Positions 1 through 64,000 are shown, numbered from the stretch's first letter. The stretch is DNA of 64,000 nt from Bilabrum cf. latius (GCA_965178125.1 OZ237740.1:806001-870000); one strand, 5' to 3'. Translations and numbers: made by a program. Notes: generated by a model from the letters alone, not told the origin.

Positions 1-1064
1 TCTCGCAGATCGACGCCAATCTGCAGCAGGAGGGTAAGGGCAGCGGGCTGGGGCTCGCCATCACGGAGAGCATCGTCAAGCTGCACGGCGGGGCGGTCGG
101 CTTCATGTCGGCCAAGGGTGTGGGGGCGATATTCTGGGGCTGGATCCGGTGCAGCACGCAATGGGAAGCACCGGGCAAACAGCTGTCTGGCCGCAATTTG
201 GGCGCAGGAAGCGAGCACGTGTCTGAGGCAGATGAGGGCGGTCGGGACAGTCCCAGGGCACAAGGCTCCTAGCATCAAATCAGCCCCCCGGCAAAGAAGG
301 CCATCCTAGGACCCAGGGCGGCTGACCCCTCCGCGGGCAAAGAGGGGTTTGCTGGTGCTGGGGGTTCGGCTGCTTCGGGTGCAAGGAGGGGGTCCCACAG
401 AGGATCCCTCAAGCCGGCTCCGTTGATGCCCCGCCGCCTGCTGTGCGTGGACGACGAGCGGTCGAACCGGAGGCTGCTCGCCAGCGCCGTGCGCCGGCTG
501 GGTATCAGCGAGGTGTATGAGGCCACAGACGGGATAGATGCCCTTGTGAAGCTGGGCGTGCCTCGCAGGCTGTGGGTGGGGTACAAGGGAGCCAAGGCAG
601 GGGACGTCACCCCCCCGGGTGGGGTCACTGCGGGGAACAAGGACACAGGTTTGGCGGCGGGGGGTGCAGCTGGCAAGGGCAGAGCCGAGGTTCGTGGCAG
701 TGCGCCCACGGCCGCCCAGGTGGCACCAATGCCGGAAGGTTTGCCCGCCGACGCGTCGTCGGGCTCCATCCCAGGCGATGTGGAGAACTTGCCACAGGTG
801 AGGCTGGGACCTGGCGACGTCATTCTGATGGACTACAGCATGCCGCTCATGGGAGGCGCGCACTGCACTAGGAGCATACGATCAGATCCTCGGTATCGCG
901 GTGTTCGTGTTATCGGCGTGACGGGCAATGTGCTGCTCGAAGATCAGCAGCGCCTGATATCGGCAGGTGCCGAACGCGTCCTGCCAAAGCCCGTCCTCCG
1001 AAGGACTCTGTAGGCCGCATTGATGTCTGCACCCGCTCGCCGACGGGCAGGAATCGCGATTTGA
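1..1064 (+). CDS. Hybrid sensor histidine kinase/response regulator, 3' part (5' end lies outside the window)
   Basis: Frame from nt 3 reads SQIDANLQQEGKGSGLGLAITESIVKLHGGAVGFMSAKGVGAIFW (HATPase G2 box). A receiver domain follows in the same frame: LLCVDDERSNRRLL...VILMDYSMPLMGG...IGVTGN...LPKPV. In-frame TAG at 270 and 1011; reading through 1011 completes the last receiver helix (RRTLQAALMS). Stop is TGA 1062-1064. Confidence 0.9.
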
Positions 1065-1142
1065 AAGGCCACAGTAGGTTACACTTTCTCAAGTGCAATT
1101 ACATTGCTATAAGCAAAAAAAAAAGAGAAATCCATCATCGCT

Positions 1143-1373
1143 TCACCTTCCAGCGCTGTCCAGGTAATCTTCCATTCGTTGCACCTCAAGCACTCCTTCG
1201 TTGACAAGTTGTTTAGCTCCTTCTGAATCAACGTACTGCTCCCTGAATCTGCTCTACACATAGAGCTTCATGGCTAGCCTGTCGTCTACGGTTCTGCATC
1301 GAGCTGCTGCCCTCAAGCAACGCCGGTACAGCGAGCAAATGGATCGTCTGACGGGAGTAGGGAGACGAATCAT
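1143..1373 (-). CDS. LYR-motif (Complex1_LYR-like) small protein, 76 aa
   Basis: Minus-strand translation MIRLPTPVRRSICSLYRRCLRAAARCRTVDDRLAMKLYV(TAG)SRFREQYVDSEGAKQLVNEGVLEVQRMEDYLDSAGR-TGA. LYRxxLR and the downstream RxxF motif are both present. In-frame TAG at 1254-1256. Confidence 0.8.
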
Positions 1374-1559
1374 GCACAATGATTCTTTAAGTTATCAGTT
1401 GCCCCGTCGAATCATCTGCGTTTAGCAGAATTCTATTTGTACAAGACATACTTGTCGCGTTCATCTTCATTTCAAGAAGTGCACTCGTCATCATTTGATG
1501 AAGAATCGCCGATTGTGCAGATGGCTTTTCCTCGCGTACAGTGCAAACCATAACAGGTC

Positions 1560-4500
1560 ATGGACTATGGTAGCGGTTTCGGGGATATATTGCATCATGC
1601 AGATTCCCAGAAGTTGCGACATTTGTGCTAGGTTGCTCCCCTTGCGACAGCAGAGATGCTGAACTTCCACCGCTACGGGACACTGCAACAGTCTAGCTTT
1701 CACTTGTTAGCCCGGGCTGAATCTCTTGGGGATGAGAAACTAGTGGCGATTGAGTCTGCTAGGGCTGGATTTGGCGTTCCTGTTGGTCTAGATGCCACAG
1801 GGAGATCACCCTTGCACGATGCTGTGGAGGCTTGCTCCCACAGAGTTGTAGACGCGCTTCTAGACGCCGGGGCTGAGCCAGACTTGACAAGCGATGGTTG
1901 CGGATGCAGTTGCTTATACTTGGCGGTGCGTCGGGGAGATACAAGCGTGGTGGCGTCGTTGCTAAGGAACGGGGCAACCGCAGACTTCAGCAGCGACTCT
2001 TCAACACCGCTTGTAGCCGCAGCACTGTCTGCAGACACACCGATGGCTGCTCTTCTTCTTGACGCCGTGAGTACATAAACGTGCCACTGCATATTTTACC
2101 AGGATGCCAGCATCGCACCACCGTGTCTCAGTCCGTATTTCGTGTCCACTCTCTCATGTCGCAGGGTCTCGCGGATCCGAACCTGCCTGCATCCAACACC
2201 GGGCAGCGCCCACTGGATGCCGTCTTGGAGTCAGGATCTGCCAGCATTACGCGCATGCTCATGCAGCGGGGGGCATGCGCCGAGGCCGACCACGAGACGC
2301 ACCTGGCGGTCCCCCGTCTCGTTGTGGCGGCGTCCAGCACGCGCACCCTAGGCGTCGCGAGGGAGATGCTGTGCGGTGGGGCCGACGCACTCGTCACATG
2401 TGGGGCGGGGATCGAGGGCCTGGGTGCTGCTGTGCGCGCCTTTGATCGCGCCGTGGGCACAAGGCCCGGGTATCCAACGAGCGTGCTGGGGCAGCTGTCT
2501 CACCGGTACACCGCGCTGGACGCGATTTGCCTGCTCTCTGCGCAGCTAGAGAGGGCACAAAACGCCCGTGCTGGGAGCTCACCGTTGGCAGCGAAGCGAT
2601 GCATGGATGCCATGAAGAAAGCAAAGTCACTGAAGGCAGCTGTTGACCTGGACGTTGACACAGACTCGGACGAAGGAGAAGCAGATGGAGAGGGGGCGCA
2701 GCCCGCGCCGCGTGGCAGGCCAAATCGCCGCAGCGCAACACGCAACTCTGCGCAATCAGGGCAAAGACCGCCTCAGCGCGGACCGCTGCGCTCCTAGCCC
2801 GAGTCCCTGCAGGGGCCTCCGGAAAAAAAGCGTGCTCGGGTGACCCCGAGCAGTGGCAGGAGCACGGATCGCACGGACTCGGAGTCAACGCGCGAGAGCA
2901 CAGTGGCCGAGCCTACCGAGGAGCAGGTGCGATCCCTGGTTCGGGTGCTCCTTGCAGCGACTCTCCGCCAAATCTCTGTCGACACTTTTCAGTTCACCCC
3001 AGGGTCTGGGGACCTGCGTGCTAGCAGGGCGCTAGTGGCGCACGGCGACGGCGTGAGGCGGGCAAGGGGTGCCGTGAGGTAGGAAATAGAAATGCTTCGG
3101 AAGGACCCGGCTGCTTACTGCCAGGCTTTGCGCACGGACACGCGTGACGAGGTGGTTCGTGCGCGTGCGGCGCGGCTCTGGGTGCAGACTCACGGCGATG
3201 CTGAGGGTGGAATCATCACCCCCCACGAGGCGCTGGAGCTGCGATTCTGCGCGCAACGGCGAGCCTCCGCAAGGGCACTGGCCCGGCTGCAGTCGGCAGC
3301 GGCGGATGCAGCCGCCGCAGAAGAGTCGTACCGTCGCACGGGCCAGGTGGAGCGAGAGGTGCGAGCAGCTGTAGACGAGGACGATGAAGTAGCTGCCCTA
3401 GGGGAACGGCCCTCCGGAGATGATGACGAACAGCAAGCCAGGGAGCTGCTCCGGACAGCGTAGGCGGGTGGCAAAACGCATAGATCGCCCTCGTCAACGC
3501 AAGCCAGGCGAAATGCTGCACCGATAACACCTGCTGCGACGCCGGATGAGGAATCTAGGCGCAGGCTGCAAGCCGTCCTAGCTTCGATGAGGACCGGAGA
3601 GGCACTGCCTGACGACGTTAGGGCCACGGGGCTTGGCGCCAACGCTGGTGGTGGCATGGTGATTGGCCTGGACGAGGCGGTCGGTTCCGGTGGATCCAAA
3701 CAATCAAGCAGCCGCATCGGAGGCAAGCGCAAGCGCGGGGCTGCAGCCGCGGCAGAGGCGAGGCTGGGCATTGCGGAGGGTGCCTTTGCCAGGAGAAAAG
3801 TATCGGTTAGGGTTGATGCAGCGGGGTAGGCCATCGGTGGTTCTGCCGCATCCGCAGCAGCTTCAGCCCCCACGCGACAAGCACAACCCGTGCTACCAGT
3901 TACTCAAATCGTGAATGGTCGCGCGTGGGGCGCCTCCACCGGTGGGTCGCCAGGCCGGCCAAAGAGCGCCGCGCAGAGGCTGATCGATCGTGCCAGGGAG
4001 CGGCGCGAGCGCCAGGCAAAGGAGGCGCAGGATCAGCTGCAGGCTTCCCCGCACGAGGCAGGCAAGAGCAAGAGCAGCGCGTCCTCGAGCTCTACTGCAG
4101 CCGGGCATCACATCCCTGGCTTGGTGTCGTCGCTGCTGCAGGCTCCGTCAGTGGCTGCATCCAGCGGGGGGACTGCCGCAGCTGCCCCTTCCATGCTAGA
4201 GCAGCTCGGTATTCGACCCAGCACGGGGGTTCCTCTGGCGACCGCGCTCGATGCTACTCCGGAAGAGCTGGGCAGCAAGGCTCGAAGGCATTGGAAGGAG
4301 GCAAAGAGAGGCAAAGGGGGCAAAGGGCGAGTCCTCGCTGCAGAGGCTGGGTCCAAAGCAGCAAAGGCAGCCAAAAAGCGCAGCAAGACAGCTGGCAAGC
4401 GCGTTCCAAAGTCGCCCTTGCAGATTCTGGGGGTTGGGAATGACAGCGGCTCGGATTCGGAAGAGGAGGAGGAGGACTCCGGAAGGAGCACGGATGAGGA

Positions 4501-4687
4501 GGGCGAGGAACAGGTGGGGGTGGAGACGGACTCGGATTCGGACGATGTCGATGTGGAGGTGCCGAGGCACAGGGGGGGGAAGGGCAAGGGTGCAAGGGGC
4601 AAGGGCTAGGCGCCTGCCAGCCGAGGGCCTGCCAGCCGGAGGCGCCTTCACAAGCGAAGCGCAAACATGTCGAGGACGAGGCGATGA
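1560..4687 (+). CDS. Ankyrin-repeat protein with a long low-complexity, basic/acidic C-terminal region
   Basis: Ankyrin motifs GRSPLHDAV, SCLYLAVRRG, STPLVAAA, GQRPLDAV. Intron 2067-2164 (GTGAGT...GCAG) joins LLLDA/GLADPN. The exon 2 frame is interrupted only by TAG (2795, 3080, 3461, 3827, 4607) and ends at TGA 4685-4687. The start ATG 1560 is inferred. Confidence 0.75.
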
Positions 4688-4835: not shown

Positions 4836-5965
4836 TTACCCCTTGATGGCGGGATCCACCGCACCGACGCTATCGCGATCGTGCGGCTTGTCAAAGCCGT
4901 GCTCAACGCCGACGGGCACCACACCGTAGGCGTTGATGGTCGGGTGAGAACCGTAGTAATGGTGCTTTATGTGCTGCATGTTCATCGTCTCTGCCACGCC
5001 AGGCAGCTGGAACATCTCCCTGCAGTAGTTGAGCAAGGAAGGCCTCTCCCGAATGAGCCTCATGTTGCACTTGAAGTGCACGGCATACACGGCGTCGTGC
5101 CTCCACAGGGTCATCACCAGCCTGATGTCGGCCTCCGTGAGCTTGCCGCCGACCAGGTACCTGTTCTTGGAGAGATGCTCCTCGAGGAAATCGAGGCCCT
5201 CCGAGAGCCCCTTGAAGGCCTCCTCGTAGGCCTCCTGGGTCTTGGCGAACCCGCACTTGTACACGCCGTTGTTGACCGGCTCGTAGACCTTCTCGTTCAT
5301 GGCATCGATCTCGGCACGGAGCGACTCGGGGTAGAGGTCCAGGCCCTTGTTGGAGGCGAACTCGTCCATCCCGTGGTTGAGCATCCGGATGATCTCCGAG
5401 CTCTCGTTGTTGACGACTCGCTTGGCCTTGAGGTCGACCAGCATGGGCACGGTGAATTTCTGCACGCCCTTGCCCTCCAGCTCGTAGTAGAGGTCGCGGA
5501 CGCTCTTGCAGCCGAAGTGGGGCTCCTCCTCAGCGCCCGGCATGTCCGGATCAGGCTTGAACATCCAGCCCCTGTGCGAATCTCCCCCTGGGTTCGTGTG
5601 CTCCCACACCGGGTGGCACACGGTCACGCCAATAGAATCCTCCAGCCCCTTCAGGGCCCTGATCGCTAGACATCTACAGGCCCAAGGGCACGCATACGAT
5701 ACATATAGGTGATATCTGCGGGTAGTGTATTGCTGGATGATTGAGAAAGAAAGGAAGGATCGCATGCGGCGACTTCGAAACGGGTTTGCAAGATTTAGTG
5801 CAGTGTCCTCAATCAAACCCACCTTCCTTTCTCGGCCGGGTAGTCTGAGCTGGGAATCTGGTTGCGAAACTGCATTTCAGTTCGCACAAAGGCACCCTTC
5901 TTGTCTGTTTCATCCAAGCTGTCGCGAGGAGCCGCAGCTTCTGTCGATGACGATACGGCTGCCAT
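4836..5965 (-). CDS. Glutathionyl-hydroquinone reductase (YqjG/ECM4-like omega-class GST)
   Basis: Motifs RYHLYVSYACPWA, FTVPMLVD, VNNESSEIIRML, VNNGVYKCGFA and HIKHHYYGSH. Intron 5716-5822 rejoins PAEKGR/YHLYV. Ends in TAA; no in-frame TAG. Confidence 0.95.
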
Positions 5966-6405
5966 GCTTCGGAAGATCCTCTTCGAATAGGCTCGAATTG
6001 AGTTGCGAACCTGAGAACGGCGCGAGATGGAAACTATTGTCATAAATTGATATCTTCAAGCTCACTCTGGATGCTAATGGTGGGCACTCCCAGCGTGTCG
6101 TCTTTACACAATCCACGCGTCGAGTGGGCACGTCACACAATTTAACCGTGTCACAAGCGCGAACTCACAACTCTATGAACCAGTATGTTGGTAGGAATTC
6201 AAGCTGGATTAAGCAGTTCTTGCGAATCCAAGACGATGGTGATGTACCAGAGTCTCTCTACTGTGAGCAATTTACACGGTAGCATTGGTCCAAAACTTCC
6301 ATTCCGGATGCGGAAGCATTTCAGCACCTTACAATGCAGAAAACCGAACGGAAGCGAAAGGGGCTTCCATAGAGACACATGCCACTAGGCGTGAGCAGAG
6401 CCAAC

Positions 6406-7392
6406 TCAGGGGTCCCCGATGCCCTCATCGTTGTAAAACTTCCACATACCGACCCTCAATGGCTCCATGACATCGAAGAGCTCCACCATCTTCTTCTCAG
6501 CTTCAGCTTGCTCAGTGTCGGGCACGATCTGGGCGAGCCAATCCTTCCTGTACGGCACAAATCCCAGCGCGGCACTGACAGCGGTGCGAACCAAGAACCC
6601 ATGTTTGGGCTGCAACGTGTTGGAATAAGCCGTGGAAGCACACGCGCTGAGCTCCTCCTTGGGCTTGTCCCGGAGCTCGGCTAGCATCGCGCATGTGAAG
6701 TCGAAGAACCTGCGACGTGCGTTGGAAATAAGCAGGTTCCTAATAAATGCATATCTACGCAGGGAGCAGTTGCGCAGTTCGGTCAGTTGATCGGTCGACC
6801 GGGGCTGTCGCAAGTAGCAGTGCGCTCCGATTCCGTACCGGACATCCAGTCAAGGACTCACCACAAGATTCGAGACGCCGCCTTGATTGCAGCCTCCCGG
6901 TCAGTCTTACTGACATCATTCGAATACTGCGCCGGTAAATGTGTATCGGATAGACTCGAGCCAAGTGGGCAAGCGGCAGGCCAGCAGTGTGGGACGACGG
7001 CGACAGCACGCCACCAGAGCTCGCCTGAGGTGATTAGAATAACTCACTTCGTATCCAACAAGATATTGAATCGTTGCCCGGTATGCCTTGCCGGATTCTT
7101 TCCAACTGTCGTGCTTCTTATCGTCTTTTCGGGCTTCGACTTGCTTCTTGCCCTCCCCTTCTTCGGCAGCCTTCATCAAAGCAAGCCGTTTGGACACCCT
7201 AGTCTAGTTTGTTGCTATGTCATCTGCAGCGAACCCAAAAGCCATTCCGAGGCTTCGAACCATCTTAATAACCTCAACAACGCCAACAAAGAACTCTTCT
7301 ATGGGTACATCGTGGCTGCGATCCTGCAACGCGCGAAAACTTGCAATGAGAACATCAATATTGAACTTGTCACTTCCTCCTGCTCCTGCCAT
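6406..7392 (-). CDS. Glycolipid transfer protein (GLTP) family protein
   Basis: Motifs SLGMAFGFAADDI and ASTAYSNTLQPKHGFLVRTAVSAALGFVPYRKDW. Introns 6927-7047 and 6710-6861 have matching phases. In-frame TAG at 7204-7206 in exon 1. Ends in TGA. Confidence 0.85.
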
Positions 7393-7594
7393 TGCGAACC
7401 AATGGTGTGTAAAGGGATGTTCATTGCAATCCGATATTTCGCAAATGTACGCTGTACAATAAAGCCGGGATCCGGCCAAGCAGAATAAAGCATTTGCAGT
7501 GCTCTCCTGCTGCGTTGGAGACTTTTGCAAGCTTTGCCAATTTTTTGTTGTAGACACTTGTGTCACATCGTACAAGCTAAACGGTTGCGGCATC

Positions 7595-10500
7595 ATGCGC
7601 AGCTTGTCGGTTTTGCTGCCGTTCGTTGCCTGTTTCGGTGCAGTTGCTCAAGAGCAGATCAAGCCAGGTGACTTCTTGTCCAGGTATGCTTCAGGCGGTG
7701 GAGATCCTTTATCGTACGTCTGGAGCGGCGGGTTTGCCTCGGGATCCCTCGAGCTTACCGCGGAGGGATACGGAGCCGAGGTGGACCTCTATGTGAAGCT
7801 AGGTACAGCTCCTGCAGGTGGTTGGACCCCTCAGGGCGCAGACTTCTAGCGGTCTGGATTTGAGGGTCTGAAAGACATATCATTGCAGCGCTCAGATGCC
7901 AATGTGGTGTCAAAGTGCGGAGGCGCCTCGAATGCCTGCGATGTGAACATTCTGGTAAAGGCGCCGACCGACTCTGCGTTTTTCGGGCTGTCTCTCGCCG
8001 CTGAGACGTCATAGAGCTAGTCCGCTCTGTACATTAAGGAGGGAGAGTCGCAGTTCGTGGATTTGCACGTGGTCCCGGGGGACGCGTCGACGTACTACAG
8101 GTACTTTACCTTCAACACCACCAAGGGTGGCTCGGTCCGCGTTGACGTGAGCGCCATCTCGGGGCAGCCGCTCCTGTACGTGGACAACGCCGCCGCTGGG
8201 CAGAATCCCCGCCCGACGAAGGAGAAGCACGACGTGGGGCCGGGCGGGCCGCCGGGCGACCAGTTCCTCCACCTCAAGCCCTGCGATCAGGACTCTTGCG
8301 CGTACGTCGCAGGAGTCATGGGCAACGGGTCCTCCAGCACGACCTTCATGATCACGGTCAGCGACGGGCTGGAGCTCATCGAGCTCCCCGACGGCGAGAC
8401 GATCGACTACGAGCTGCAGGCGGACGGGCAGGTCCTCTTCGATTACCGGCTGCCCTCCAACCTGGCAAAGGTGTCGGGCGTCCCCGTGTCGATCCAGACC
8501 ACGGCACGGGGCGGAGGCATCAACTGGATCTTCGTCGACATCGTCAACAGCACCACATGGGCCACCCGGAGGCCTACTTCCGGTTTCGCGGACTACCAGT
8601 CCACGAGCCCGCTGGGCACCCAGGGCGTGGCCATGTATCCCACCGACGCACAGTTCAAGGCCCGCTGCTCCAACTCCGAGCTGAGCAAGGGCAACTGCCG
8701 CGCCGTCATCCTCGTGTACGGCCTCATCGCCGGGCCCTTCGACATCGCGGCCATCTCGTACGGGATCGTCACGGAGCTCAAGGACTCGGAGCCAATTTTC
8801 GCGGCGGTACCGGCCAAGGGCACCGACTACTTTGCGTTCGACGTGGACCTCAGCGCCGCCGGCGGCAAGAAGGCCGGTTACCCCATCGAGATCAACGTGG
8901 ACGTGCTGGCAGGTACGCCGGACGTGTTTGTGTCCACGCAAACGCTGACACCCGGGCCGGACAACAACATCTGGAGGAGGCTGTACACCGGCTCCAACTA
9001 CACGATCAAGATCACCCCGGATGATCCGCACTACGTGTCGCAGGGTACCTACTCGATCGCAGTGCTGGGCTACAACGTGGCGGCGGACTTCTAGATCCAG
9101 GCCAACGTGGACCGGACGGGCCAGTTCGCGTACCCCTTGGTGGACGGCGTGGCAACGTATGCCTCTTCTGACCCGCACACCATGCGCTACTTTATGTTCA
9201 ACGCGACGGGGCTGACGACCAAGTCGGCCGTCGAGTTCGTCGCTGAACCATTCTGGGGTGGTGCCACGGACCTCTACGTCTCCAACACTGGGGCTGGCAA
9301 CCAGCCAGTGTTCCCGCTGGTGAAGTGCATCAAGTGGTCTGGATCCACGGGAGAGTGCACTGGGTGGACTGTGGACCCTACCACGTACCACTTCAGCAAC
9401 GTGGGCACTGGCGGAGAGGTTTCCGTCACCATCCAGTACAAGGATTTCAACCACGACAGCCTCTTCATCGTCGGCGTCTTCGCAAACTCGGACGAAGGCA
9501 GCAGCTACACGATCAAAGGCACGGAGCTGAACCCAGAGCCACTGCCTAGCCCCACCGTGCAGCCCACCAACCAGCCGGTGCCGGGTGGCGCGCTGCCAGA
9601 TGGCACTCCCGTGTTCGGTTCGATCGATTCTTGGCAGCAGCCGGGCGTGATGTATTACACGTACACGCTCGTGGCACCAGCGAACCAGGACACGTTCCAG
9701 CTGGACATTTCTGCCGAGAACATCATCGGTAATGTCAACATCTACGCCTCGGACGTGATGGTGCACCCCACCGACAGCGCGACGTGGAAGGCCACCGTTG
9801 ACTACGAGTTGTCCTACCTCACCATCACCAGCGACCAGCTCTCGCCCGACTGCAAGACGGCCGCCACGACTGGCACTGGGTGCTCCATCTACGTCGCGGT
9901 GCAGCCTGCGTATGCTCTCGTTATCTGCGAGTACCGCTTGCTTGGCTTCATTGTGGGGGACACGTCTGCCCCCATGCAGCCCAACGCCGGCGTGCAGGCT
10001 CCGTTCTACGCCCAGCCAAAGATGGACTACTACCTGCGCGGGTCCATCGCCCCCGCGCAGCAGCCCGTCGGCGACGATGACGGCAGCTGGACGTCGACGC
10101 TGAGCTCCAAGGTGTCGACAGGAGCACAGCCCAGCCCTGGTGCGCGCCCGTCGTCCGCCACTTCCAAGCAGCTGCGCGACGGCATGATGAGCAACCCTGC
10201 CATGGTAAACCAGGTGATCCGCGATGCAGCGGAGGCTGGCAACGAGATGGAGATCTCTCGCCTGACCATGGAGCAGATGGCGCGGCAGGCCAGCGGAAGC
10301 AACGTCATCGAGATCGGCGAGGTCCGACTGGGGGCCCGGCACACAACCTTTAAGGTCACCGCTCAGCTGGGTGACACTGAGGCCAGGGGCGCGATCTACG
10401 CGAACATCGGCTACGGCAAGCAGTTCTACGGCGGTGGCACGGACTCGAGCGACAAGACTGCGTACGTGTACGAAGGCATGGGCGTGCTGTCGATCGACGG

Positions 10501-41332: not shown

Positions 41333-41417
41333 TTGTCAATGATTTGTAGTCTGAAGCTTTCCTACGTTTGCAATGAAAGTATGACACAAACAGCATTCTC
41401 TAAAATCAAGGGCCGTC

Positions 41418-51942: not shown

Positions 51943-52235
51943 AATGGAGTGGAGGGAAAGTGGGGCGTGCGGTCCGCAGCACCCCATCGCAACGTTCGCG
52001 GCTGATCTCACCTTTTGATGATGTCTCCTTCGTAGTACCAAGACTCCTGCACTACCCTCTGGACCCTCGTACTGAATCTTCACTGCGCACTACTGCATTT
52101 TATCGCTGCAGCAGAACTAGAGGTGTCCAGACGCTACCGACCGGGGCCGACGACTTCAAGCGCCGGATTGACTGCATATCAGGTTCGCATATACATTCGC
52201 CGAGCTGGCTGCAGCTGCTGGTTGACCTTGACCAA

Positions 52236-52881
52236 TCATTCGCCGAGCAGGTCGAAATCGTCGAGCTTGTCGTTGTACTTTTGCACGGTCCTCTTGATCT
52301 TCGACGTGTCCACCCATGTCACGTAATCCTCAAGAAGCCGAGTAACCATGTACGCAGGATCGGTCACCACCTCTGGCCCGACGCGCACGTGACCACCCTC
52401 AATAAGCGTGACAGCAGCTTTCATGTTCTCAGCCATCTTGAGCCGAACCAATACGGTGGACAGCCGTCGCCGGCAGAAGGCCGATACGCTTACTTTGTCA
52501 GCTTTCGACAGACTCTTCGTCTAATCAACTAGACCCATTGTGTACAATTTGTCCAGAAGTGCGTCAGTGGTTTGGATCCTGAACTTGCTGTCTGCATTCA
52601 GTTTTCGCAGTTTTCGCGATATTCTGGTCACAAGTCCAACCAACTTGTTGTACCTGCGTAAATGGCAAGATTATGGTTGTCGGATTAAGATGAGCACGAT
52701 TGTATTTTATTATTTACACCCCAGGCGCCATAATTCCTCACTTTACATAATCTTCCCTGTCTTGGATGAGATACCGCCTTAGTACCTGTACCTCCCGCAG
52801 ATTCTTGTCACTTTTCCATTGGAAGAAATCAACCTTCTTTAACAAGCGCTTCTCATGGTGTTTTAGCTTTCGGCTTGCCAT
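52236..52881 (-). CDS. IMP3: U3 snoRNP protein IMP3
   Basis: [20 protein letters not shown]...[19 protein letters not shown]...SAFCRRRL...[19 protein letters not shown]...DDFDLL. Intron 52654-52741. In-frame TAG at 52521-52523 (GLVD-TAG-TKSL). Stop TGA. Confidence 0.95.
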
Positions 52882-53218
52882 TGCAAGCCTGTTTGTGTGG
52901 CTCTTGCAGCTGTACTCCGCGATGGCAGCACAACTCGAAATCCGCACGTTACTTCGTGCTCGACGCCTTGTGGCCGGATGCTCGGGCGGCTACTAGGTTG
53001 CAGAGCAAATGAGAAGCGCTTCTATCAAACAAATTTAGTTTGTGTTACGGGTAGACCGTGGCTGTGCAGGTCCATGTTCATCAAAGCACGTATGTACAAT
53101 GTCCCACCCACTACCTCGCGAACGGCACAGGGTGGCCTTGCAGGCCACCAACAAGCTAGCGTGGCTGGATGCCCGTGGATCATCCAGTTCACAGCAATTC
53201 ATCCGATTCCGCGGGTAC

Positions 53219-53794
53219 TCATTTCTTGGCGTTCTTGTCCACGTAAAAATTCCTGGTTGCCATCGGCAACTGCACCCGGATGCCATCCAGCGCCGTGGTC
53301 AAGAACACTTGGCAGCCTAATCGTGACGTTTCAGTAAGTCCAGGCGCCATATCAAGCATGTCATCCTCTTCCTCGCACGCTTCTGGCAGGCTATCGAACA
53401 CATCCTCATCCAGTATGACGTGGCACGTGCTGCACGCAATCGACCCTTCGCACGCACCTTCCATCTCAATTCCGTGTCTATGAGCAACCGATAGCAGATC
53501 TTGACCCTCTCTTGCTACAACATCGTGCTCTTTCCCGTCAGAGTATACAAAGGTTACCTTCACCGGAGGCTTGCTCGTATCCTCTGCAAAACAAGCCAAA
53601 GAGAGCGGTACCGGCGACCATCAAGAAATCACTGGCTGCATTGCGCTCATTAAAATTAGGATAAGCTTACCAGGACCATGACCGTGCCATCGCACTTGCT
53701 GCATGTGCAACGACAGCGCCGATTGCAAAGAGCTTCGCCATCTCAAAATATCTGTGGCTGCCGCCATCCGCCTACATCGCATGGCTGCCCGCAT
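53219..53794 (-). CDS. Mitochondrial-type [2Fe-2S] ferredoxin (adrenodoxin/Yah1 family)
   Basis: GACEGSIACSTCHV...EDDMLD...SRLGCQ. Arg/Ala-rich transit-like exon 1; intron 53584-53670; stop TGA. Several nearby ATGs could be the start. Confidence 0.93.
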
Positions 53795-53978: not shown

Positions 53979-55068
53979 ATGGTAAAGTCGAACAGAGCTC
54001 TTCGATAGTTGGCGCATGCTGCCACCAAGCTTGGACCAAGGCGGATCATGCGCTTAAGTCCCGAGTTTGCGCCGCAGACTACCCAATGTGTAGCCGATAC
54101 GTTTGGACGAGCAGATTCAGAGGACCCATTTGCATGGTGAGACAGTAAAAAATGTTCTGCTGAGCTGAAGGGGGCTCTTGTCTTCGTGATGCAGGCGATT
54201 CACGGCAGGATGCACCATTGATGCTTGCGAGAATACTTCCGAACGCAGGTGCATGAACCTGAGAAAGCATCACTGGCATTCAATGGCGGGCATGTTTATA
54301 GACCGCGCGGCACTGGAGGCAGACCCATTATCCGTGATTTGCTACAACGAGTGAGACGCGTTGTTGGCGTCCGTTTGCTGGTGCGACGGCGACTTGTCTT
54401 GTGGCCCTCCTTCACGAGCGAGCCCTGGCGAATTTTGTCCGCCGGGCAAGATACTGGAGCTGGTACACATGGTCTCATTGCTTGTTTTGCGTTCGTTGCT
54501 TGGCGTGCACCCTCCTGCCCAGAGGCTGGCCTATTCTCGCCTCGTGTGCCACATGTTGACCGCCGCCAGCTTTGGTTGTCCCCTCCGGCGCAGCGAAACG
54601 GATACTGTGGAAGGAGTCATGATTAACGAGGACCTGAGGACGAACCCGCCGATCTAGTACAAGACGCTCCCATCCGACTGGAGCCCGGTGCGAGCCATCT
54701 TCAACCGTGCTAGGATGCGGTTCCTTGCGAATCACAACGGCTACATCGAGCCAGGCATGGTGATGCACACCCTGTATTTCACCTGCGTGCGACCGGAAGC
54801 CAGGTAGCAGGGAGTGATGAAGGCCATGTGGGAGGAGACCGTGCGGGCAGCGGAGGAGCAGAATTTCCAGCGCATCGCGGCCACTGCTTCCTCTGGGCAG
54901 GTGAGGGGCGTGCTCGAGGACAACCTGGGTTTCTGGCCCGTGTCGGAGGTCTCATTCGACGAGTTTAAGTTCCAAGGGCAGCATATATTTAAGGAGATCA
55001 CCGAGCGGGATCCAGAGCATGCTCGCCTGGTGATGCTCGAGCGCAAGGTGAACAGCAACATGTACTGA
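53979..55068 (+). CDS. GNAT-family N-acetyltransferase
   Basis: With introns 54137-54248 (alternative acceptor 54194) and 54351-54593 the frame reads DPFAW/CMNL...ICYND/ETDTVEGVMINEDL...YFTCVRPEAR(TAG)QGVMKAMW...LGFWPV. In-frame TAG at 54006, 54655 and 54805; stop TGA. The start could instead be ATG 53841. Confidence 0.7.
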
Positions 55069-55295: not shown

Positions 55296-58200
55296 ATGTC
55301 CAACACCGTATTTGGCGCAGCTGCCGACAACGATGTTGCGAGGCTGCAGGAGCTCTTGGGGTCTGACTCTTTTCGCGATTGTCCTGATCGGTCTGGGTGC
55401 ACGCCTTTGCATATCTCCGGTAAGCGCCGTGCTGCAACTGCCTGTTGTTTCGGCCAATTGGCGACGGGTACGCGACCACACCCGCACCCTGCAGCCAAGA
55501 TGAATTCCTTGAATATGCTGTACGCGCGCATTCACTCTGGTATTCATAGTTTAGCATGTGGACTCTGATACCGCAGCAACCTACGGTGCGCGAGAGGCGG
55601 CGGAAGCACTCGTAGCCATGGGCGCCTGCGTGAACGCTGCTGACTTGGAAAACTTGTGGACTCCAATGCATCGCGCTGTTTACTTTGGCTGCTATGGTGT
55701 GGCCGCGATGTTGGCATTCAAAGGGGCGAAGACGTCACTGCCGGACAAGGATGGTGTATCGCCGGAGGCATTGCTGACCAGGCGTTGCACACATTATTTG
55801 GACGCCGTTCGAGTGAGAGGTATACGGCGTATGCTCGCCCGGGTGTCACCGTACGGCTTGGAGGGTGCCGAGCTGCGAGAATCGCGATGGCTGCCTGCTG
55901 CACTTGCTGGCGTAGATTTCTGCGATCACCCTGCGTTGCGAGCCCTCAAAATGAGAATACGCCGCCCAGGCTATGACTGTTCTGCTCCAGCCGTACCGGG
56001 TGGAGACCTCGTAGACAGCCAGACTTTGACACGTAATCGGTTGCGGCGCGGCTCGGCGGCCTCTAGCCGCAGCCGATTCTCCTCCGCAGCTCTCTCTGGG
56101 ACGGGGCGTGCGCTTGGGCATGAGATCGGGCACCGAAGAGGAGCTGGTAGTCGTTCTGGTAGTGGAGGCGGCAGCCGGAAGGGGTCCGGTGCCGGCCGGC
56201 GCGAGTCGTTCGGGGAGGTCCTCTTAGGGGGTCAGGGCCGGTCTGGATCAGCGAGCGGGGTGTCTTCCGCTGGCGGGCGCGGGAGCTTCGACGCGCTACG
56301 AGCCGGGAGTGGTGCCGCAGAACCGTCTTGGCTGCTCGATGAGGACGGAGAGGGCGGGGGTCTGGCGGAGAAAGCCAAGAGGGCAGATGCGATCGGCAGG
56401 TCTTCCGATGAAACAGCGGGGTACAGCACCATGCTGCTGGCGTGGGGCAGGCACAATCTGCTTTCGATGTCCAGGGGAAACTCGCAATTCAAGCCTACCC
56501 TGCTTTCAGGGAGCAGCTTTGCGCTGCATGGCAGGCGGGTCGACTGCGTGTCTGCGGGCAGAGCGCACACTCTCGCTCTGTGCAGCGATGGCGCGGTGTT
56601 CGCCTGGGGCACAGGCAGCAGGGGCAGGCTAGGAACAGGGAACAAGAGGGACGCTCCAGCGCCGGTGGAGCTGAGGGACTTGCGACAGGCCAACGTGTTT
56701 GCCGTGTCGGCAGGCGGGGAGCACAGCCTGGCCCTATCCGGCAACGGAAGCGTGCTGGCATGGGGAGCCGACCAGTACGGGCAGCTGGGCCGGGGGGCTG
56801 GGGCGAGCCGGTCGGATCAGCTGGTGCCAAGACGGTTGTAGGGGACCATGCGAAAGGTCAAGTTTGCCTCGGTGTCCGCCGGAGAGCGCCACAGCCTGTT
56901 CGTGGCCGTGGACGGGAGGGCCTGGGCCGCCGGCGACAACGGGTCCAACCAGTGCGGGCCTTCCGACTTTGACACGGCAGCATCCTTGTAGAAGGGAGAC
57001 AGGTCAGCCAGCAGCAGGAAGAAGAGCAGGTCAGGGTCTGCGTCAGAAGCAACGAGTTGCTGCTTGGCACCGCGTAGGATCGACGAGACCATCCGGCTGC
57101 ATTCCACCGGCGGCCACAGGAGGCGTAACGAAGCGTTTGGTGCCTCTGTGGATCGTCCGGGTGAAGGCGCGGTGCAGGTGAGGCAGGCAGCTGCTGGTAA
57201 TGACCACACCGTGGTGCTCACGCACAAGGCAGAGGTGTGGGAGCTTGGATTTGGGCGGCCGCCACGCCGAGTGGTGCTCGACAAGCAGGCGGCCCGAGAC
57301 CATGACATCCGTAGGGCGTTTGAGTGGTTCCAACCCAGGCCAACGACCACTACGGAGCTGCTGGCCGATTCAGATCGCCGATCGGGGTTCAAGCGGACGC
57401 TGCGCCTCGGGGATACAATTGTGAGGAGGCAAGCCTCCGGGGCTGGCTCTGCCAGGCGGCAAACCAAGGGCAAGTCCAAGCACAGCAAGGGCAAGAAGGG
57501 GAGAGGCAGTGGCAGGGTGCCCGCCTCACCCGGTGCAGGCGCTTAGGGCAGTCCCCACCGGCGGGCCCAGGCGTCACCGCACATGACTGGCTCCCAAGCA
57601 GTATCACCTATCCCGCCCATGGCATTGCCAGCGGCTCGAGGCCAGTCAGTACCGAGCATGCAGAGCGGTCCTGTGAGCTCAGGTAGCGCCGCTGCTGCCG
57701 GCGCAGGGCCTGCATCCACGCTCGAGAGGTTTCTGAGCGGGTCAAGCGACGGGTGGCAGCGCAGCACGGGCGAGACAGCCATGGCACTGGCGGTGTGCGC
57801 CGGTAGGAAGCACTCTGCTGCGATCGACAGCGATGGCAGGGTCTGGACATGGGGAGCCCCTGGACCATGGCTTGGGCACGGCAGCGGCAAATCCAAGAAG
57901 AGGAGCGGTAAAAAGAAAGGAAGAGGCAGGGACCGGCCCCAGGATGGCGACTTAGGCGCTGTGGTTAAGTCCCTGTGGGCGCCCAGCGGCGTCGGTCAAG
58001 ACATGGCTGCATGTGCCGAGGACGCTGCAGCGGTCGCAGGGAGTACCAATGGGCCCATCTTGGCAAGGCGGATCTACCACCCTGCTATGGACAGCCGCAA
58101 TGTCGTGAGCGTCGCCGCGGGAGACACGCACACCGTGGCGGCTACAAGAGATGGCGTTGTCTTCGTGTGGGGCACGGGAGAGTCGGGCAGCCTCGGGCTG

Positions 58201-61200
58201 GGCACCGATATGCAGTTGGTTGGGCGGCCCACGAGGGTTCCCGGCGTTGTTCGCGTAGCTAGTGTTGCAGCTGGCCCGTCACACTCCATTGCGCTGACGG
58301 CGCTGTCAACCCCGTCCATCGTGCGACCGAAAGCCCCTACCTTACAGGAAATGGAGGCTGAGCGCGATGAGGTTCGTCGCGCGGTCAGGCATGTTCGCTT
58401 CGAGGAGCTCGCTGACACGTTTGGGATTGTTGCGGCAGAGGCGTGGCTGCAATAGGATCAGACAGCCGAAGAGGTGGCCGATCTAACTGGCCGTGGCGAT
58501 GCTTCCGAAACGAGCGCTGCTGCAGCTGGCGCACATGCCGATATCTAGCTGCCTGCTGGTGGTGCTCTAGAGCACGCTCTCCTGCAGGGGCTCGCCGGTG
58601 CAGTGGCAGGGCCTGCTGGGGTGGAATCGAAAGAGGATCGCTCGATGTTTAGAACTTCAGACTCCAGCGACGGCAGCTCAACAGACGAAGACCCCGACGT
58701 TTCAGCTGGACTAGACACCAGTATCGTGTCTCAGAGCGACGCCATCGAGACCAGTGATGCTGGTGCACCACAAGCGGCTCATAAGGCAGCGAGAACATGG
58801 TCAGCGCAAGTAGTTGGAGGCACGGCCATTCTGCGAGGCCCTGGCACGATATAGGCGGTTGCGTCCCTATCCTCCCTGGCTCAAGCTGCCGCTAGCAGGT
58901 GCGTAGGGCTGGAAGGCGCGGCGCCAGTCATGGCAATCGCCGAGCAGCTCGGCGCCTCACAGCTGGCCGCAGCATGTGGGGAGTACATTGCGCAAAATGC
59001 CGACTTTGTGCTGCTGTCATCCACCAGCTTAGCGCAGAAGGCGCGCGCGGCTCTAGCAGAAGACGGGAGCAGCTTGCTTGGCGGACGATGGACGTCTGAG
59101 GAGGAGCGAGAGTCCTTCAAGACACAGCGACGGTTGAAGCACGCTGAGATCCGAAGGAGATACAAGGCCATGGTATTGCAGGAGCAGGCGCTAGCATCCA
59201 CACCAGAAGGTCAGGCAGCCATGCTTGCAAAGCTGCACCCAGACTGGGAAGGCGGCGAGGACGGGCAGTGGGCCTGGGGCCGAAGCGGAGGTGGTGGTGT
59301 CCGGCCGGATGGTATCAGTGCCACGATAGGAACCGCCGCACCTTTCGGTCCCGGAGAGGATGAAGACGATCTTGGAGTCTCGAGTGGCGATGAGGCAGCT
59401 GGGTCGGGTTCAGCGAGCGCCGGCTAGGCCCCCCGCTTCGACCCGCTAGCCAGACCCCCCGATCCCCTGAAGGCCACGCAGCAGGACGAAATGGCTGCAA
59501 GAGTGCCCACCAGGACGGTGGATGGCACTCGGCCAGTGATGCTTCCTGCCCTAGGGCGAGTGTCCCAGTTCTTGGTTGGGCTGGAGGCCTCTGCACCGCC
59601 TGCTGTGCGGGCCGTGGTGGCTCGTGCTCTGCACCTGGACCGGTCTGCCACAGAGGAGCTCAGCCTGTACCAGCAAGATCACGCAGAGGCCCTAGCGAGG
59701 TCTCTGGAGGAGGCCAATGGAGGTGCTGCTGCTGGCACCAGCACGCGGTCGCAAGTGCTGGGGCAGCCAAGCGCAAGGTCGCAGGTGCTTTCATCGCTGC
59801 CGTCTGACGTCGCGTTCGACCTGATGCGGCTCGTTCGAAGGACCAAGGTCCTTCGTAGGCGGCTGTTGCGGTGGACGGAGAGTGCAGTTGTGGAGGCTGA
59901 ATCGCACGCGCTCCGCCAAAGTGGCCGAGCTGGGGCGGCCGACCTGCTGCAAGCACGAGCAGATTCCGCTGGGCTTGGTCGGAAGAGGACGGCCCGCAGC
60001 AGCAGCAAGGGCACTGGTACTGCCCAGGGGAGGAGCCTGGATGCAAAGCGCCGGTGGATGGTGCATTCAGAGCTGTGGATGCTGGCTCCAGTCATCCGCA
60101 GAGTGGACGCTGTGCTTCGAGCCCTGCTTCGCGAGGCTGGGGTGCAGACCAGCGATCTGGGTGGAGACCCAGCGGACGAGGACGACGCGGCGGATGCTGC
60201 GGGGCCTGTATTTGGGTCGAGAAGGGGGGGGCGGGGGTTGGCCGCGAGAGGTGCGCGCATCATGTTTGCCGAAGATGCGATGGAGCGCGCAGTACAGGCT
60301 GCGAACGACACGGCGGGGCACAGCGCTGGTCTGATTGCAAGAGCAATCTGGCACTCGGCTCGCGCCGTGGACGGGTTCGAGCGTCTGGGCACTCGAGGCC
60401 TTGGCGAGTGGGCGTTTGCAAGGCCTGACAAGAACGAGGACGAAAGCGGTGCTCAGTCGCGGGGTGCAGCTCGTCTGGTGGACCAGGACCTGGAGTCTGC
60501 CATTGGCATGAAGCAGCCCAGGCGGGTGGTTGGCTATGCCGCAGTGCGAGGAATGAGGGCGCTGAGATCGAAGGCTGCGCTGCGGCCAGAAGAGCTTCGC
60601 ACCGTTGCGAGCCCAGCGGCTGCATCGAGGGCGCAAGATGAATCCAGCCGAGCCGCAGCTTCGGATGCTTCTTGCGGCATTGCCACCCAGCCTGTTGTCA
60701 TACCTGCGACTGGCAGCGCAGCGGGCGGTAAGGCAGCCGGCAGTGCGGATCCTTCCAAGGTGTAGTTGGACAGGAGCAAGGCCCCCGCAGGGGTGCACCA
60801 TGGATCTCGATCTCAAGCTGCCGGGGCAGATTTGGAGCCCACACCGATCGCACCATCGCAGGCTGCGGCTTCCGCTGGCACGCCGAAGGCAGCAGCAGGC
60901 TCCGAGCCCAGCTCGAAGGCAGGAGCAGGCTCCGAGCCCAGCTCGAGGACCTCCAAGAAACGCAACAAGAGAAAGCGCGGCAAGAAGAGGAAAGTGTCCC
61001 ACGATGGCGGTGCCGGCGCCCTTGGCCAGCTCATGGATCCACTGCTGGGCAAAGGGAGCCTAGTCCACGCTCCTGCTCCTTCTCCTTCCCCTTCTCCTGC
61101 ACCATCGCCCCAAGGAAAACAGCGAGCGTCCATGGGAACAGCCGGCATCGATGCAATTCCCCGCAGCCCATTGCTGGCTGGCCATCCCCGGGGTGCGGCT

Positions 61201-62160
61201 GCAGACTCCAGCCTTGCAGCGCTTGCCCCCAAGTCCGCCATCGCGAAGGCCCCAGGTGCAGTGCCTGCCGCCTCGCCGCCCCCGCGACCGGCCGCCGGGC
61301 CCTCGGACCTTTTTAGCCTCATGGAGGCAGAAAAGCGCAGGTCCGAAGCCCAGAGGGAAGCAGACCTGGCTGCCGCGCGACTGGCCGCGATGGAGGACGC
61401 GAGAAAGCTAGCTGCAGAATAGGAGGAGAAGGCGCAGCGCGCGGCGCGCGGCTCAGCTTGGGGGGCTGCTGGGGGTGGCCGCGGCGGGTCTGGACCTCGG
61501 CCATTGGACGAGATCATGCAAGCCGAGAAGATTGCCTCACGGCACCGCGGTGGCCAGCGCGCAGGAGCCTCTCACGCTGGGCTTGGCAGCAGCATGAGCA
61601 AACCACCGGTGCCGGTGTCTTCGCCATGGGGTTCCCGCAAGGTGGTTGCAAGCCCCGTCTTGGCACCTTCACGACCGCCCCAAAGTACCAAGTGGGGCAC
61701 TACCACGAGAGGTGCCCGGCCCGTTGCAGTGACCGCCTCCATGCTGGGCGGCAGCGCAGCTCTAGGCAGGCAGGAGGAAGATACTGGTGGGCAGGTGGGG
61801 GCATCGGCAGGGGGCGTCTTCAGCCTGGAGGCACAGCTGGCTCAGGCCAAGAAGGAGCAGTCGCGGGAGGAGGAGGCCAGGCTGGCAGCGGCCAGGGAAC
61901 AGGCGCAGCTCGAGGCAGCACTGGCTGCTTCTATGCAGTCGGGAGACGTGGCCTACTAGCAGGCTGCTGGTGGCTCTCGCGGTGGATATCCTCCAAGGGG
62001 AGGTGGGAGCAAGGGTAGTAGGCGCGGCGGCGGGCGGGGTCGTGGCAGGGGAGCGGGTCGGGGTCGGGGAGGGGGAGGGGGCGGGCGTGGGAGGTCGGGC
62101 GGGAGAGGGCGCGGTGGAGGTGGAGGCCGGGGCAATGCGCGCGGTGGGCGGCGCCAGTGA
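55296..62160 (+). CDS. IBTK/Btb1-like ankyrin plus RCC1-repeat protein with a BACK-like helix, UIM-like motif and RGG tail
   Basis: Ankyrin motifs GCTPLHIS/AT and LWTPMHRAVYFG. RCC1 repeats VSAGRAHTLAL...VFAWGTGSRGRLG, VSAGGEHSLAL, VAAGDTHTVA. LGASQLAAACGEYIAQN; QLEAALAASMQ; RGG-rich end. Intron 55420-55576. In-frame TAG at 56839, 56989, 57544, 58453, 58852, 59425, 60763, 61420, 61957; stop TGA 62158-62160. Confidence 0.82.
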
Positions 62161-62327
62161 CGAAAGTAATACTCGCCAACGAAGTTAGCGCGAGCAAAAG
62201 GGGCTGCTGAGACCCCGTCCGTCCAAGCCATGATGGGTAGAAATGTTGATCCGGATGAAGCCCAAAAGATAGACATTGCAGGACACCTACAGTGGTGAAC
62301 GGAAATTCATTAGTGCTTGCAGATCAC

Positions 62328-63969
62328 TCACATGCCAGCGCCAGAGGCCGCGCCTCCGCCCGCCTTGCTAGTAAGAGGTCGCACTTCGACCGTCTTACCG
62401 CTCGTGATCTTGCCCCAGCCGATGAGCCTCCAATGCTTGTCAACTTGCCTGCTCAGGGCGATCTTGTCCCCGGGCTCTGCGCACACTGGCAGCGTTAATG
62501 TCAGGGTGGCGATGTCACCCCTGACCTTGCCAACCCTGCCCGTGGTGCTCTTGGACCCGACATTGACCATGAGGCTCTCCTTCCTCTCCAGCTTGCGGAT
62601 CTTCTGGTCCGTGCCCTCACCGGCGCGCACTCCCAGCAATCGTCGCAGCAGGTGGTACTGCACCTGAATTTCCTCGTAAACCATGGGCAGGTTGCCCCTG
62701 TGCCCCAGGACGTGGCCCACAAGCCTATCTGCCCGGGTGAGGGTGGGGTCAATGCTGGTTCCCACTCCGATGAGGCCGCCCGGCACGGCGTACTGCAGCT
62801 TGTTGGTCTCCGCCTTGAGATCCGTGACGGTGCTAAAAATCGGGGAGCACACGTTCTGCTTGGTGGCGGGGTCCCTTCGCACCAGCCCGGGGAGGATCTC
62901 GATCTCGTCGCCCAGCTTGAGGACCCCCCTGAGGATGGACCCTCCCGCCACGCCTCCCTCCATGTCTTCGATCTTGTGCCCCGGTCTGTTCACGTCGAAG
63001 GATCGAATGACGATCATCCTGGGGCTGTTGGTGAAGTCTCTCACGGGGAGAGGAACCTTCCTCGCGAGGTACTCGCAGACCAGGTCCACGTTGTACCCTA
63101 GCTGGGCCGAGACGGGCAGGATGGGGGCGTTCTCGGCCACACCTCCGTCCAAAAAGGCCTTGATCTGCTGGTACTGCTCCTTGGCCTGGTCTCGGCTGAC
63201 GATATCGACCTTGTTCTGCAGCACGATGATCTTGTCCAGCTGCATGATCTCCACCGCTGCCAGGTGCTCTTGGGTCTGGGGCTATGGGCAAGGCTCGTTG
63301 GCAGCGATGAGCAGGATGGCGGCGTCCATCACGGCTGCTCCGTTCAGCATGGTTGCCATGAGAATGTCGTGGCCCGGGCAATCGACAAAGGAAATGTGCC
63401 GCACCAGCTGCATGGTTCTGCCCGTGCCGTCTTCCATGGGATACTCATCAGGGGAATTACTTCGACCAGAGGCGTAGACGTACGGCGGTGCGCTCGACCT
63501 GTAAATCTTCGCATTAGCGTAGCCAAGCTTGATAGTAATGTTCTGAGCCAACTCATCCTTGAACTTCACGGTCTTCACACCCGACAGAGCCTTCACAGTG
63601 GTGCTCTTGCCGTGCGCTACGTGACCTACGGTTCCGATGTTGATGGTTGCCTATCTCGAGATGATCTCGGGGGTCAGTGGTGTGAGAGATTCGACCTTGA
63701 GCCCCTCCAATGACTGCTCTTTCATGCCCTGCAGGAGATCAAATGGGAGGCAACAAGGGTGCGAGAAACAAGACTTGAACCGGTGCAGTTCTGCCAGAAC
63801 GAGGGACAGGGACAGTACTGGGAGCCTAGGCCAAAGCATAGCAACCCATGCCATTGCTTACCTCTCCAGTAGGCATCGGGGGCCCCTTTGCAGACCAAGG
63901 GTGAAGTTTCTCCGCGTCAAAGTCGGGTGCACGAACACCTCCTGCCCCACTGGCGGCCCCACTGCCCAT
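62328..63969 (-). CDS. EIF2S3: Eukaryotic translation initiation factor 2 gamma subunit
   Basis: ISR(TAG)[21 protein letters not shown]...[13 protein letters not shown]...[20 protein letters not shown]...ANEPCP(TAG)[13 protein letters not shown]...QNKVD...HWRLIGWG. Exons 63862-63969 and 62328-63728; stop TGA. Confidence 0.98.
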
Positions 63970-64000
63970 CGACGACTTCAAAACGCTCTTTGGGGACTCA

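Follow-up and report, generated by a model that had tools for sequence, protein, structure and literature searches.

UAG as a probable glutamine codon, with UAA and UGA kept as stops, in a G+C-rich nuclear stretch of Bilabrum cf. latius

The 64,000-nucleotide stretch OZ237740.1:806001-870000 of the Bilabrum cf. latius assembly GCA_965178125.1 (the window, positions 1 to 64,000 throughout) carries TAG triplets within the reading frames of most of its genes, and the question was whether TAG is translated there, as which amino acid, and whether TAA and TGA still terminate. A reading made earlier without database searches (the sequence-only reading) had proposed a non-standard nuclear code in which UAG specifies glutamine while UAA and UGA remain stops. 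Frames, homologs and gene ends were analysed, and they indicate that this is very probably the nuclear code of the window; UAG would be a minor synonymous glutamine codon in cytoplasmic translation, with termination mostly at UGA and otherwise at UAA. The source had also been described as a G+C-rich, intron-containing protist, and this was borne out by a G+C content of about 60% overall (54–65% in 4-kb steps along the window), eukaryotic genes and a GT-AG intron. Nuclear eukaryotic origin is given by eIF2-gamma, IMP3, Myb and RCC1 genes together with the intron, by which bacterial or phage DNA was ruled out.

Fifteen genes were tallied, with family support from Pfam and PDB comparisons. TAG stood in frame in 13 of them, the exceptions being the GST and ferredoxin genes; the same number had been given by the sequence-only reading. 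Across 19 in-frame segments (19,074 codons, no frameshifts) 114 TAG, 0 TAA and 0 TGA were counted, and in the two remaining frames of these segments there were 142 and 116 TAG, 47 and 71 TAA (118 in total) and 300 and 426 TGA (726 in total). TAG amounted to 12.5% of the putative glutamine codons, or 6.0 per 1,000 codons. Under the standard code the longest stop-to-stop frame was 850 residues; with TAG as sense the longest frames were 5994, 3279, 2215, 2046, 1316, 1158 and 874 residues, with TAA as sense the longest frame was unchanged at 850, and with TGA as sense it was 1545. The last value reflects the lengthening of chance frames, since TGA is the commonest stop triplet in the window (836+834 copies; TAG 436+470, TAA 176+202). 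Homology ran across the TAGs: seven full-length homologs of a giant protein were collinear with the window in one frame over 23402-41173 (about 17.8 kb), and eIF2-gamma aligned to the human protein over residues 3-448 of 466, spanning both of its TAGs.

The residue at TAG was read from distant homologs. In eIF2-gamma, glutamine was present at TAG site 1 in 117 of 117 covering homologs and at site 2 in 120 of 120; a residue-level PDB alignment (28zu_E) accompanies these counts. For the giant protein, a 1,200-residue stretch (window 33545-37144) was searched exhaustively with HMMER against 1.84 billion representatives, which gave 6,444 matches at E up to 0.001, and the best 150 of these were tabulated at eight TAG sites; three of the eight showed glutamine in 100/103, 114/131 and 104/114 homologs, three others were largely gaps or variable columns, and the remaining two are described below. 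When 171 homologs of the giant protein were used and a conserved column was defined as one with 30 or more aligned homologs and a consensus of 50% or higher, 3 of the 37 TAG sites fell in conserved columns, and the consensus was glutamine in all three (shares 0.98, 0.87 and 0.89). As a control, glutamine was the consensus in 6 of 774 conserved columns occupied by other codons, in 9 of 18 occupied by CAG and in 3 of 5 occupied by CAA; by this comparison TAG behaves as a glutamine codon, unlike the average codon. Strongly conserved TAG columns were glutamine in five of five cases overall (two in eIF2-gamma, three in the giant protein), so that the alignment of TAG mostly to other residues, named earlier as grounds for giving up the assignment, was looked for and not seen in conserved columns. 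The TAG of the GLTP-domain gene falls in a variable loop and is uninformative.

Close relatives were represented by open reading frame (ORF) fragments 88–99% identical to window proteins in other public assemblies (P0004, P0006, P0191, P0226, P0302-P0309). A near-identical eIF2-gamma from another assembly (P0004) begins directly after TAG 1 and has glutamine at TAG 2. Nine giant-protein fragments (88–99% identity) covered 11 window-TAG sites, nine of which were glutamine, one lysine and one glutamate. A fragment end was taken as the point at which a standard-code gene caller had met a stop in the relative, and the window codon at the nine fragment ends was TAG in six cases and CAG, AAG and GAG in one each. 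On a single contig of one relative (P0302 and P0304) some window-TAG sites were glutamine codons and others were stops. Standard glutamine codons at some positions in the relatives and shared TAGs at others form the pattern of synonymous codon turnover, as judged from sequence comparison, and the frequent differences in TAG and CAG positions suggest that this turnover is fast. The interchange of TAG with glutamine codons stands beside the conserved columns in upholding the proposed assignment. As stored, the relatives' fragments are cut at TAG and have false GTG or ATG starts just downstream of TAG sites.

These data also bear on the explanation that the TAGs never reach the ribosome as sense codons or do not exist in the genome, having arisen through faulty sequencing or assembly, through pseudogene decay, or being removed by mRNA editing (such as U to C, which yields CAG). 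Editing to CAG would likewise predict the glutamine codons found at 9 of 11 window-TAG sites in close relatives. However, only one type of lesion was present (114 TAG, 0 TAA, 0 TGA and no frameshifts), even in the essential eIF2-gamma; the six fragment ends that lie on a window TAG place TAGs in the DNA of several relatives, and TAGs at identical positions in independent assemblies argue against assembly error, a possibility that the sequence-only reading had itself raised. The mixture of glutamine codons and stops within one relative's contig looks like codon turnover and argues against uniform editing. To our knowledge there is no precedent for the editing of more than 100 nuclear sites of this kind. 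Error, lesion or editing is judged very unlikely.

The genes of the window, which supply the termini considered next, are given below with coordinates, strand, family evidence, number of in-frame TAG and terminal triplet. Exon joins were inferred for the Myb gene (17978-18602 and 18675-22622), the ankyrin gene (1554-2075 and 2063-4684), the GLTP-domain gene and IMP3.

3-1064, plus strand: hybrid histidine kinase/response regulator, 3' part, cut by the window start (Pfam Response_reg 3.8e-15, HATPase_c); 2 TAG; ends in TGA.
1143-1391, minus strand: LYR-motif protein ORF (Pfam Complex1_LYR 1e-06); 1 TAG; ends in TGA.
1554-4687, plus strand: ankyrin-repeat and low-complexity protein in two frames (1554-2075 and 2063-4687) with a presumed intron between them (Pfam Ank_2 1.9e-14); at least 5 TAG; ends in TGA.
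4836-5768, minus strand: Xi-class GST/glutathionyl-hydroquinone reductase (PDB 4uss_A 4.4e-101; Pfam GST_C_2, GST_N_2); no TAG; ends in TAA.
6406-7386, minus strand: GLTP-domain gene, exons 6919-7386 and 6409-6849 (Pfam GLTP 4.2e-16 and 5.7e-4; weak PDB match to GLTPD1/CPTP); 1 TAG; ends in TGA.
7595-13603, plus strand: 2,002-residue protein, putatively secreted (no Pfam family; G+C at third codon positions, GC3, 0.84); 6 TAG; ends in TGA.
14104-17580, plus strand: low-complexity ORF of 1,158 codons; 7 TAG; ends in TGA.
17978-22625, plus strand: Myb-domain gene, with Myb exons at 17978-18602 followed by a 1,316-codon ORF at 18675-22625 (Pfam Myb_DNA-binding 9.2e-22); 14 TAG in the two tallied segments; ends in TGA.
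22973-41332, plus strand: giant protein of about 6,070 residues with DUF3638/DUF3645, an EF-hand pair and three SPRY domains (Pfam), consisting of a first exon, a single phase-1 GT-AG intron of 141 nucleotides (23262-23402) with homologs aligning on either side, and then one exon of 17.9 kb that contains the TAGs; 37 TAG; ends in TAA.
41418-51257, minus strand: PAS/SH3 protein, reading frame at most 3,279 codons long (Pfam PAS_3; SH3_2/SH3_9 matched over residues 3220-3275 of 3279); 25-26 TAG; ends in TAA.
52236-52887, minus strand: IMP3 of the U3 small nucleolar ribonucleoprotein, two exons (PDB 7mq8_LZ 2.4e-47); 1 TAG; ends in TGA.
53219-53620, minus strand: mitochondrial-type 2Fe-2S ferredoxin, adrenodoxin-like (PDB 2mjd_A 1.4e-36; Pfam Fer2); no TAG; ends in TGA.
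54355-55068, plus strand: GNAT acetyltransferase-like ORF (Pfam Acetyltransf_1 4.5e-4, barely over the cut-off); 2 TAG; ends in TGA.
55513-62160, plus strand: ankyrin and RCC1-repeat protein of 2,215 codons (Pfam WD40_RLD 3.6e-60, RCC1 1.7e-42); 11 TAG; ends in TGA.
62328-63728, minus strand: eIF2-gamma (PDB 28zu_E 1.8e-188); 2 TAG, at residues 26 and 149 of the 466-residue reading; ends in TGA.

Termini were 12 TGA, three TAA (GST, giant protein and PAS/SH3) and no TAG, identical to the earlier tally. Support from homology had been claimed for six of these ends, and it stood for five. The PDB 4uss_A alignment of the GST extends to residue 300 of the 310 in the query and to residue 322 of the 325 in the chain; the SH3 domain of the PAS/SH3 protein lies at residues 3229-3275 of 3279; the TGA of eIF2-gamma agrees with homolog ends; that of IMP3 is three residues past the common C-terminal motif of its homologs, with 7mq8_LZ aligned as far as residue 182 of the 184 in its chain; and 8rmc_I is aligned to ferredoxin query residue 131 of 133. 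The end of the GLTP-domain gene was less firm, as the Pfam match stops 39 residues before the TGA.

An ordinary UAR code (NCBI table 6), in which both UAA and UAG are glutamine, UGA is the sole stop and TAA is merely rare because of G+C-richness, would accommodate the low frequency of TAA, the least common of the three stop triplets across the window, and 12 of 15 genes ending in TGA. CAA nevertheless accounts for 211 of the 797 CAR codons (26%; CAA:CAG 211:586), and from this ratio about 41 in-frame TAA were expected, against 0 observed in 19,074 codons (P ~6e-16) and 118 off frame. No long frame was lengthened by reading TAA as sense, and the three TAA-terminated genes include two, GST and PAS/SH3, whose ends coincide with domain ends. 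A table 6 code is highly improbable on these figures, and the proposal that UAA remains a stop, to which frequent in-frame TAA would have been the counter-evidence, withstood the count. The same proposal for UGA was sustained by its absence in frame, its place at 12 of 15 termini and the agreement of the eIF2-gamma, IMP3 and ferredoxin ends with homologs. Codes with no dedicated stop (Condylostoma, Blastocrithidia, Amoebophrya ex Karlodinium) were rejected on the basis of 0 in-frame TGA and 0 in-frame TAA in the 19,074 codons.

A further alternative is an ambiguous code in which UAG is glutamine inside genes and, depending on context, the terminator of some of them, comparable to Condylostoma, karyorelicts and Blastocrithidia (UAR and UGA). 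Context-dependent codes of this type are described in the literature excerpts used here, and with 15 termini only, a TAG terminator used in 5–10% of genes would often be missed. Against this, none of the 15 termini was TAG, the base following in-frame TAG showed no significant bias relative to that following CAG (chi-square p = 0.10), and homologs still align downstream of the giant gene's final TAG, which precedes the end of that gene by 89 codons. Ambiguous use of UAG is considered unlikely.

Several observations weigh against UAG being a glutamine codon in a code with UAA and UGA as stops. The 0 of 15 TAG terminators come from a small sample that allows for occasional use of TAG as a terminator. 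The in-frame segments were bounded by TAA or TGA by construction, so that the zero counts of in-frame TAA and TGA carry independent weight only in stretches through which homology runs in frame. In the giant protein 34 of the 37 TAGs stand where homologs are poorly conserved or cannot be aligned, and these are silent on the residue; among the best 150 homologs of its 1,200-residue stretch, site 166 showed methionine 40, glutamine 37 and phenylalanine 33 of 115, and site 986 glutamate 68 and glutamine 45 of 145. The IMP3 TAG aligns to threonine of the human and yeast proteins, in a variable loop, and two of the 11 close-relative sites are lysine and glutamate, as given above. No tRNA gene of any kind was detected in the window by ARAGORN, and no eRF1 gene lies within the 64 kb. 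Rfam families at gathering score were likewise absent from the window.

The lysine and glutamate sites and the glutamate excess at giant-protein site 986 would be expected if UAG were sense for another residue, that is glutamate, lysine or leucine (compare some ciliates and the rhizarian exLh) or pyrrolysine, and for leucine in particular the hint of lineage given below points to Rhizaria, where a UAG = leucine code exists according to the excerpted text of PMC5304391. The five of five strongly conserved TAG columns and the nine of 11 close-relative sites that are glutamine speak against it, and no conserved TAG column had leucine in more than 6 of 131 homologs, glutamine predominating there. 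The single-base neighbours of TAG include AAG (lysine), GAG (glutamate) and CAG (glutamine), and lysine and glutamate are common replacements of glutamine. Another residue at UAG is extremely unlikely.

For UAG as glutamine, the mechanism proposed for the window is that of Iotanema spirale (Fornicata), in which nuclear UAG is glutamine and UAA and UGA are stops (Panek et al. 2017, PMC5304391); the excerpts of that paper used here describe a tRNA-Gln(CUA) together with an eRF1 whose recognition of UAG is weakened, the change being T32G of the GTS motif. By analogy with known codes of this type, UAG but not UAA would be decoded in the window's organism by a tRNA-Gln with anticodon CUA, most simply derived from a duplicated tRNA-Gln(CUG), and the N-domain of eRF1 would have lost recognition of UAG and kept that of UAA and UGA. 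The same paper names CUA as the only anticodon reading UAG but not UAA and tRNA-Gln(CUG) as its simplest source (PMC5304391).

Likeness to Iotanema, as far as the excerpts describe it, extends to in-frame UAG at conserved glutamines and the lack of in-frame UAA and UGA; Iotanema also has no UAG terminators, and none was among the 15 termini of the window, a sample too small to tell against rare use. The two differ in that Iotanema termini were 104 UAA of 119 and 15 UGA (PMC5304391), against 12 TGA of 15 in the window at 60% G+C, and in that Iotanema is known from a transcriptome only, whereas the window is contiguous genomic DNA. No eIF2-gamma homolog above 68% identity was found beyond the near-identical records, which implies no close named relative in the collection searched (the presence of Iotanema there was not verified).

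UAG-only glutamine codes had been called rare in nuclear genomes by the sequence-only reading, with Iotanema as the example; the rarity stands, but the list was incomplete, since Protocruzia tuzeti and, twice, phyllopharyngean ciliates are also reported in the accessible text of McGowan et al. 2024 (PMC11687900; also PMC10089648). In these ciliates, too, UAG and not UAA passed to glutamine, and each event is described as recent and independent. The window differs from them in carrying 15 genes on 64 kb at 60% G+C, among them an 18-kb single-exon gene, and in having cercozoans and euglenozoans, not ciliates, as the best named matches of its giant protein. Phyllopharyngeans have gene-sized chromosomes.

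Among other codes, that of the rhizarian exLh (Sainouroidea) has UAG as leucine with UAA and UGA as stops, according to the excerpts of PMC5304391. It resembles the window code in the decoupling of UAG from UAA in a non-ciliate, perhaps even inside one supergroup, should the weak hint of Cercozoa prove right, and differs in the residue, glutamine dominating at the conserved TAG columns of the window. UAR = glutamine codes are listed in the excerpts of PMC11687900 for many ciliates, hexamitin diplomonads, some ulvophytes, oxymonads and Amoeboaphelidium; in all of these UAA is also glutamine, whereas in the window TAA is never in frame and ends three genes. The same excerpts report UAG as leucine in a phyllopharyngean ciliate, UAG as serine in Scotinosphaera, and a ciliate that assigns UAA and UAG to two different amino acids (PMC11687900). 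The phage 'code 15', in which TAG is glutamine, is described for crAss-like and other gut phages with recoded late genes (PMC9523058, in part) and has an identical codon table; the window is instead eukaryotic nuclear DNA with spliceosomal introns and genes for translation and ribosome biogenesis.

Placement of the organism was approached through eIF2-gamma and the giant protein. The named organisms among the 20 best HMMER matches of the giant protein were the cercozoans Chlorarachnion, Amorphochlora, Paulinella micropora, P. chromatophora and Bigelowiella and the euglenozoans Entosiphon (three) and Diplonema. A quick maximum-likelihood tree of its conserved region was built from 62 rows (the window and 61 of 62 candidate homologs, each with at least 350 aligned residues), and the window fell in a 12-row clade (Shimodaira-Hasegawa-like approximate likelihood ratio test, SH-aLRT, 97) whose only named members were Paulinella micropora, Chlorarachnion and Amorphochlora. 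This is a weak hint of a place in Cercozoa, and only a weak one because it comes from a single, paralog-rich gene family. The DUF3638/DUF3645 family is large, with 6,444 representatives matched at an E-value of 0.001 or lower, and its relatives carry the UniRef label 'ubiquitinyl hydrolase 1'.

Candidate sources were compared with the window and set aside: Ascetosporea have 24–33% G+C (PMC11069148, in part) against about 60% in the window; Lemnamoeba and the chlorarachniophytes themselves have intron-rich genomes (PMC13746701, in part) and a protein identity of only 39–46%; and Protocruzia, Iotanema and other named taxa were rejected in that no named eIF2-gamma homolog in the collection searched exceeded 68% identity. 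The rhizarian genomes compared, as described in the portions of PMC13746701 and PMC11069148 used, are intron-rich or AT-rich, and the window is neither. A search of the protein Atlas with the TAG-free GST returned generic GST clusters only (Ascomycota, bacteria) and no taxonomic lead, and a word-indexed search for full-length giant-protein relatives gave nine matches that were uninformative for taxonomy. A metagenome scan with the 93%-identical eIF2-gamma fragment P0006 gave 80 loci, all at 67% identity or less, none of which had the insert motif of the window protein or a TAG-specific frame extension; the contig from which P0006 itself derives was not among them. This insert lies at residues ~77-110 of eIF2-gamma, where animal eIF2-gamma has zinc-knuckle cysteines, and contains no cysteine in the window protein; a cysteine-free insert was present in 22 of 121 homologs, and a very similar one in P0012, P0126, P0010, P0009 and others, so that the insert could be a lineage marker.

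No report of UAG as glutamine in a rhizarian or in a G+C-rich non-ciliate eukaryote was found by full-text literature searches, by which most subscription journals are not covered. The window code is probably a further independent case of UAG-only glutamine. We lean, by a narrow measure, towards an independent origin outside ciliates and metamonads, possibly cercozoan, which would be the first in a strongly G+C-rich, compact genome with UGA as the main terminator. In eukaryotes one eRF1 reads all three stops, so each split between UAG and UAA shows that the recognition of the two codons is separable. Few cases are known in which UAG and UAA have parted ways, and a further one, G+C-rich and with UGA as main terminator, would add an independent replicate on a different mutational background and comes with long genomic contigs, not a transcriptome alone. 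If the independent origin is correct, the rapid TAG/CAG turnover among close relatives would let the change be dated, the tRNA-Gln(CUA) and the eRF1 changes could be sought in contiguous genomic data, and it could be examined whether G+C pressure, by which UAG and UAA terminators are lost to UGA, and not AT pressure, frees UAG for capture. Standard-code callers chop genes at every TAG, so that annotation and phylogenomics of the lineage need the right table; fragments of this kind, with an end on a TAG site or a start directly behind one, are already present in the public protein collection.

Further features of the window concern its genes and their spacing. The listed in-frame segments comprise 57,222 of the 64,000 bases (about 89%), from which the genome appears compact and intron-poor, and such compactness is unusual given genes of this size; the convergent giant (about 6,070 codons) and PAS/SH3 (3,279 codons) genes have only 85 bp (41333-41417) between their TAA stops. 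The 2,002-residue protein (7595-13603, plus strand) begins with a hydrophobic leader and carries a membrane anchor at its C-terminus. Relative to its neighbours it has an extreme codon bias (CAG 96 against CAA 3, with the GC3 of 0.84 listed above), still with six TAG, and it has the look of a surface protein expressed at a high level. Two signalling genes are of the bacterial-like two-component type, the response-regulator/HATPase gene (3-1064, plus strand) and the PAS gene with a terminal SH3 domain (41418-51257, minus strand), and both sit in long low-complexity sequence rich in serine, glycine and alanine. The largest stretches without a convincing gene (5877-7594 and 51258-52235) coincide with the lowest G+C (0.54–0.56 in 4-kb steps). 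A long frame at 6046-7488 (plus strand) has no family match and a flat G+C across codon positions, and it overlaps the GLTP-domain gene of the opposite strand.

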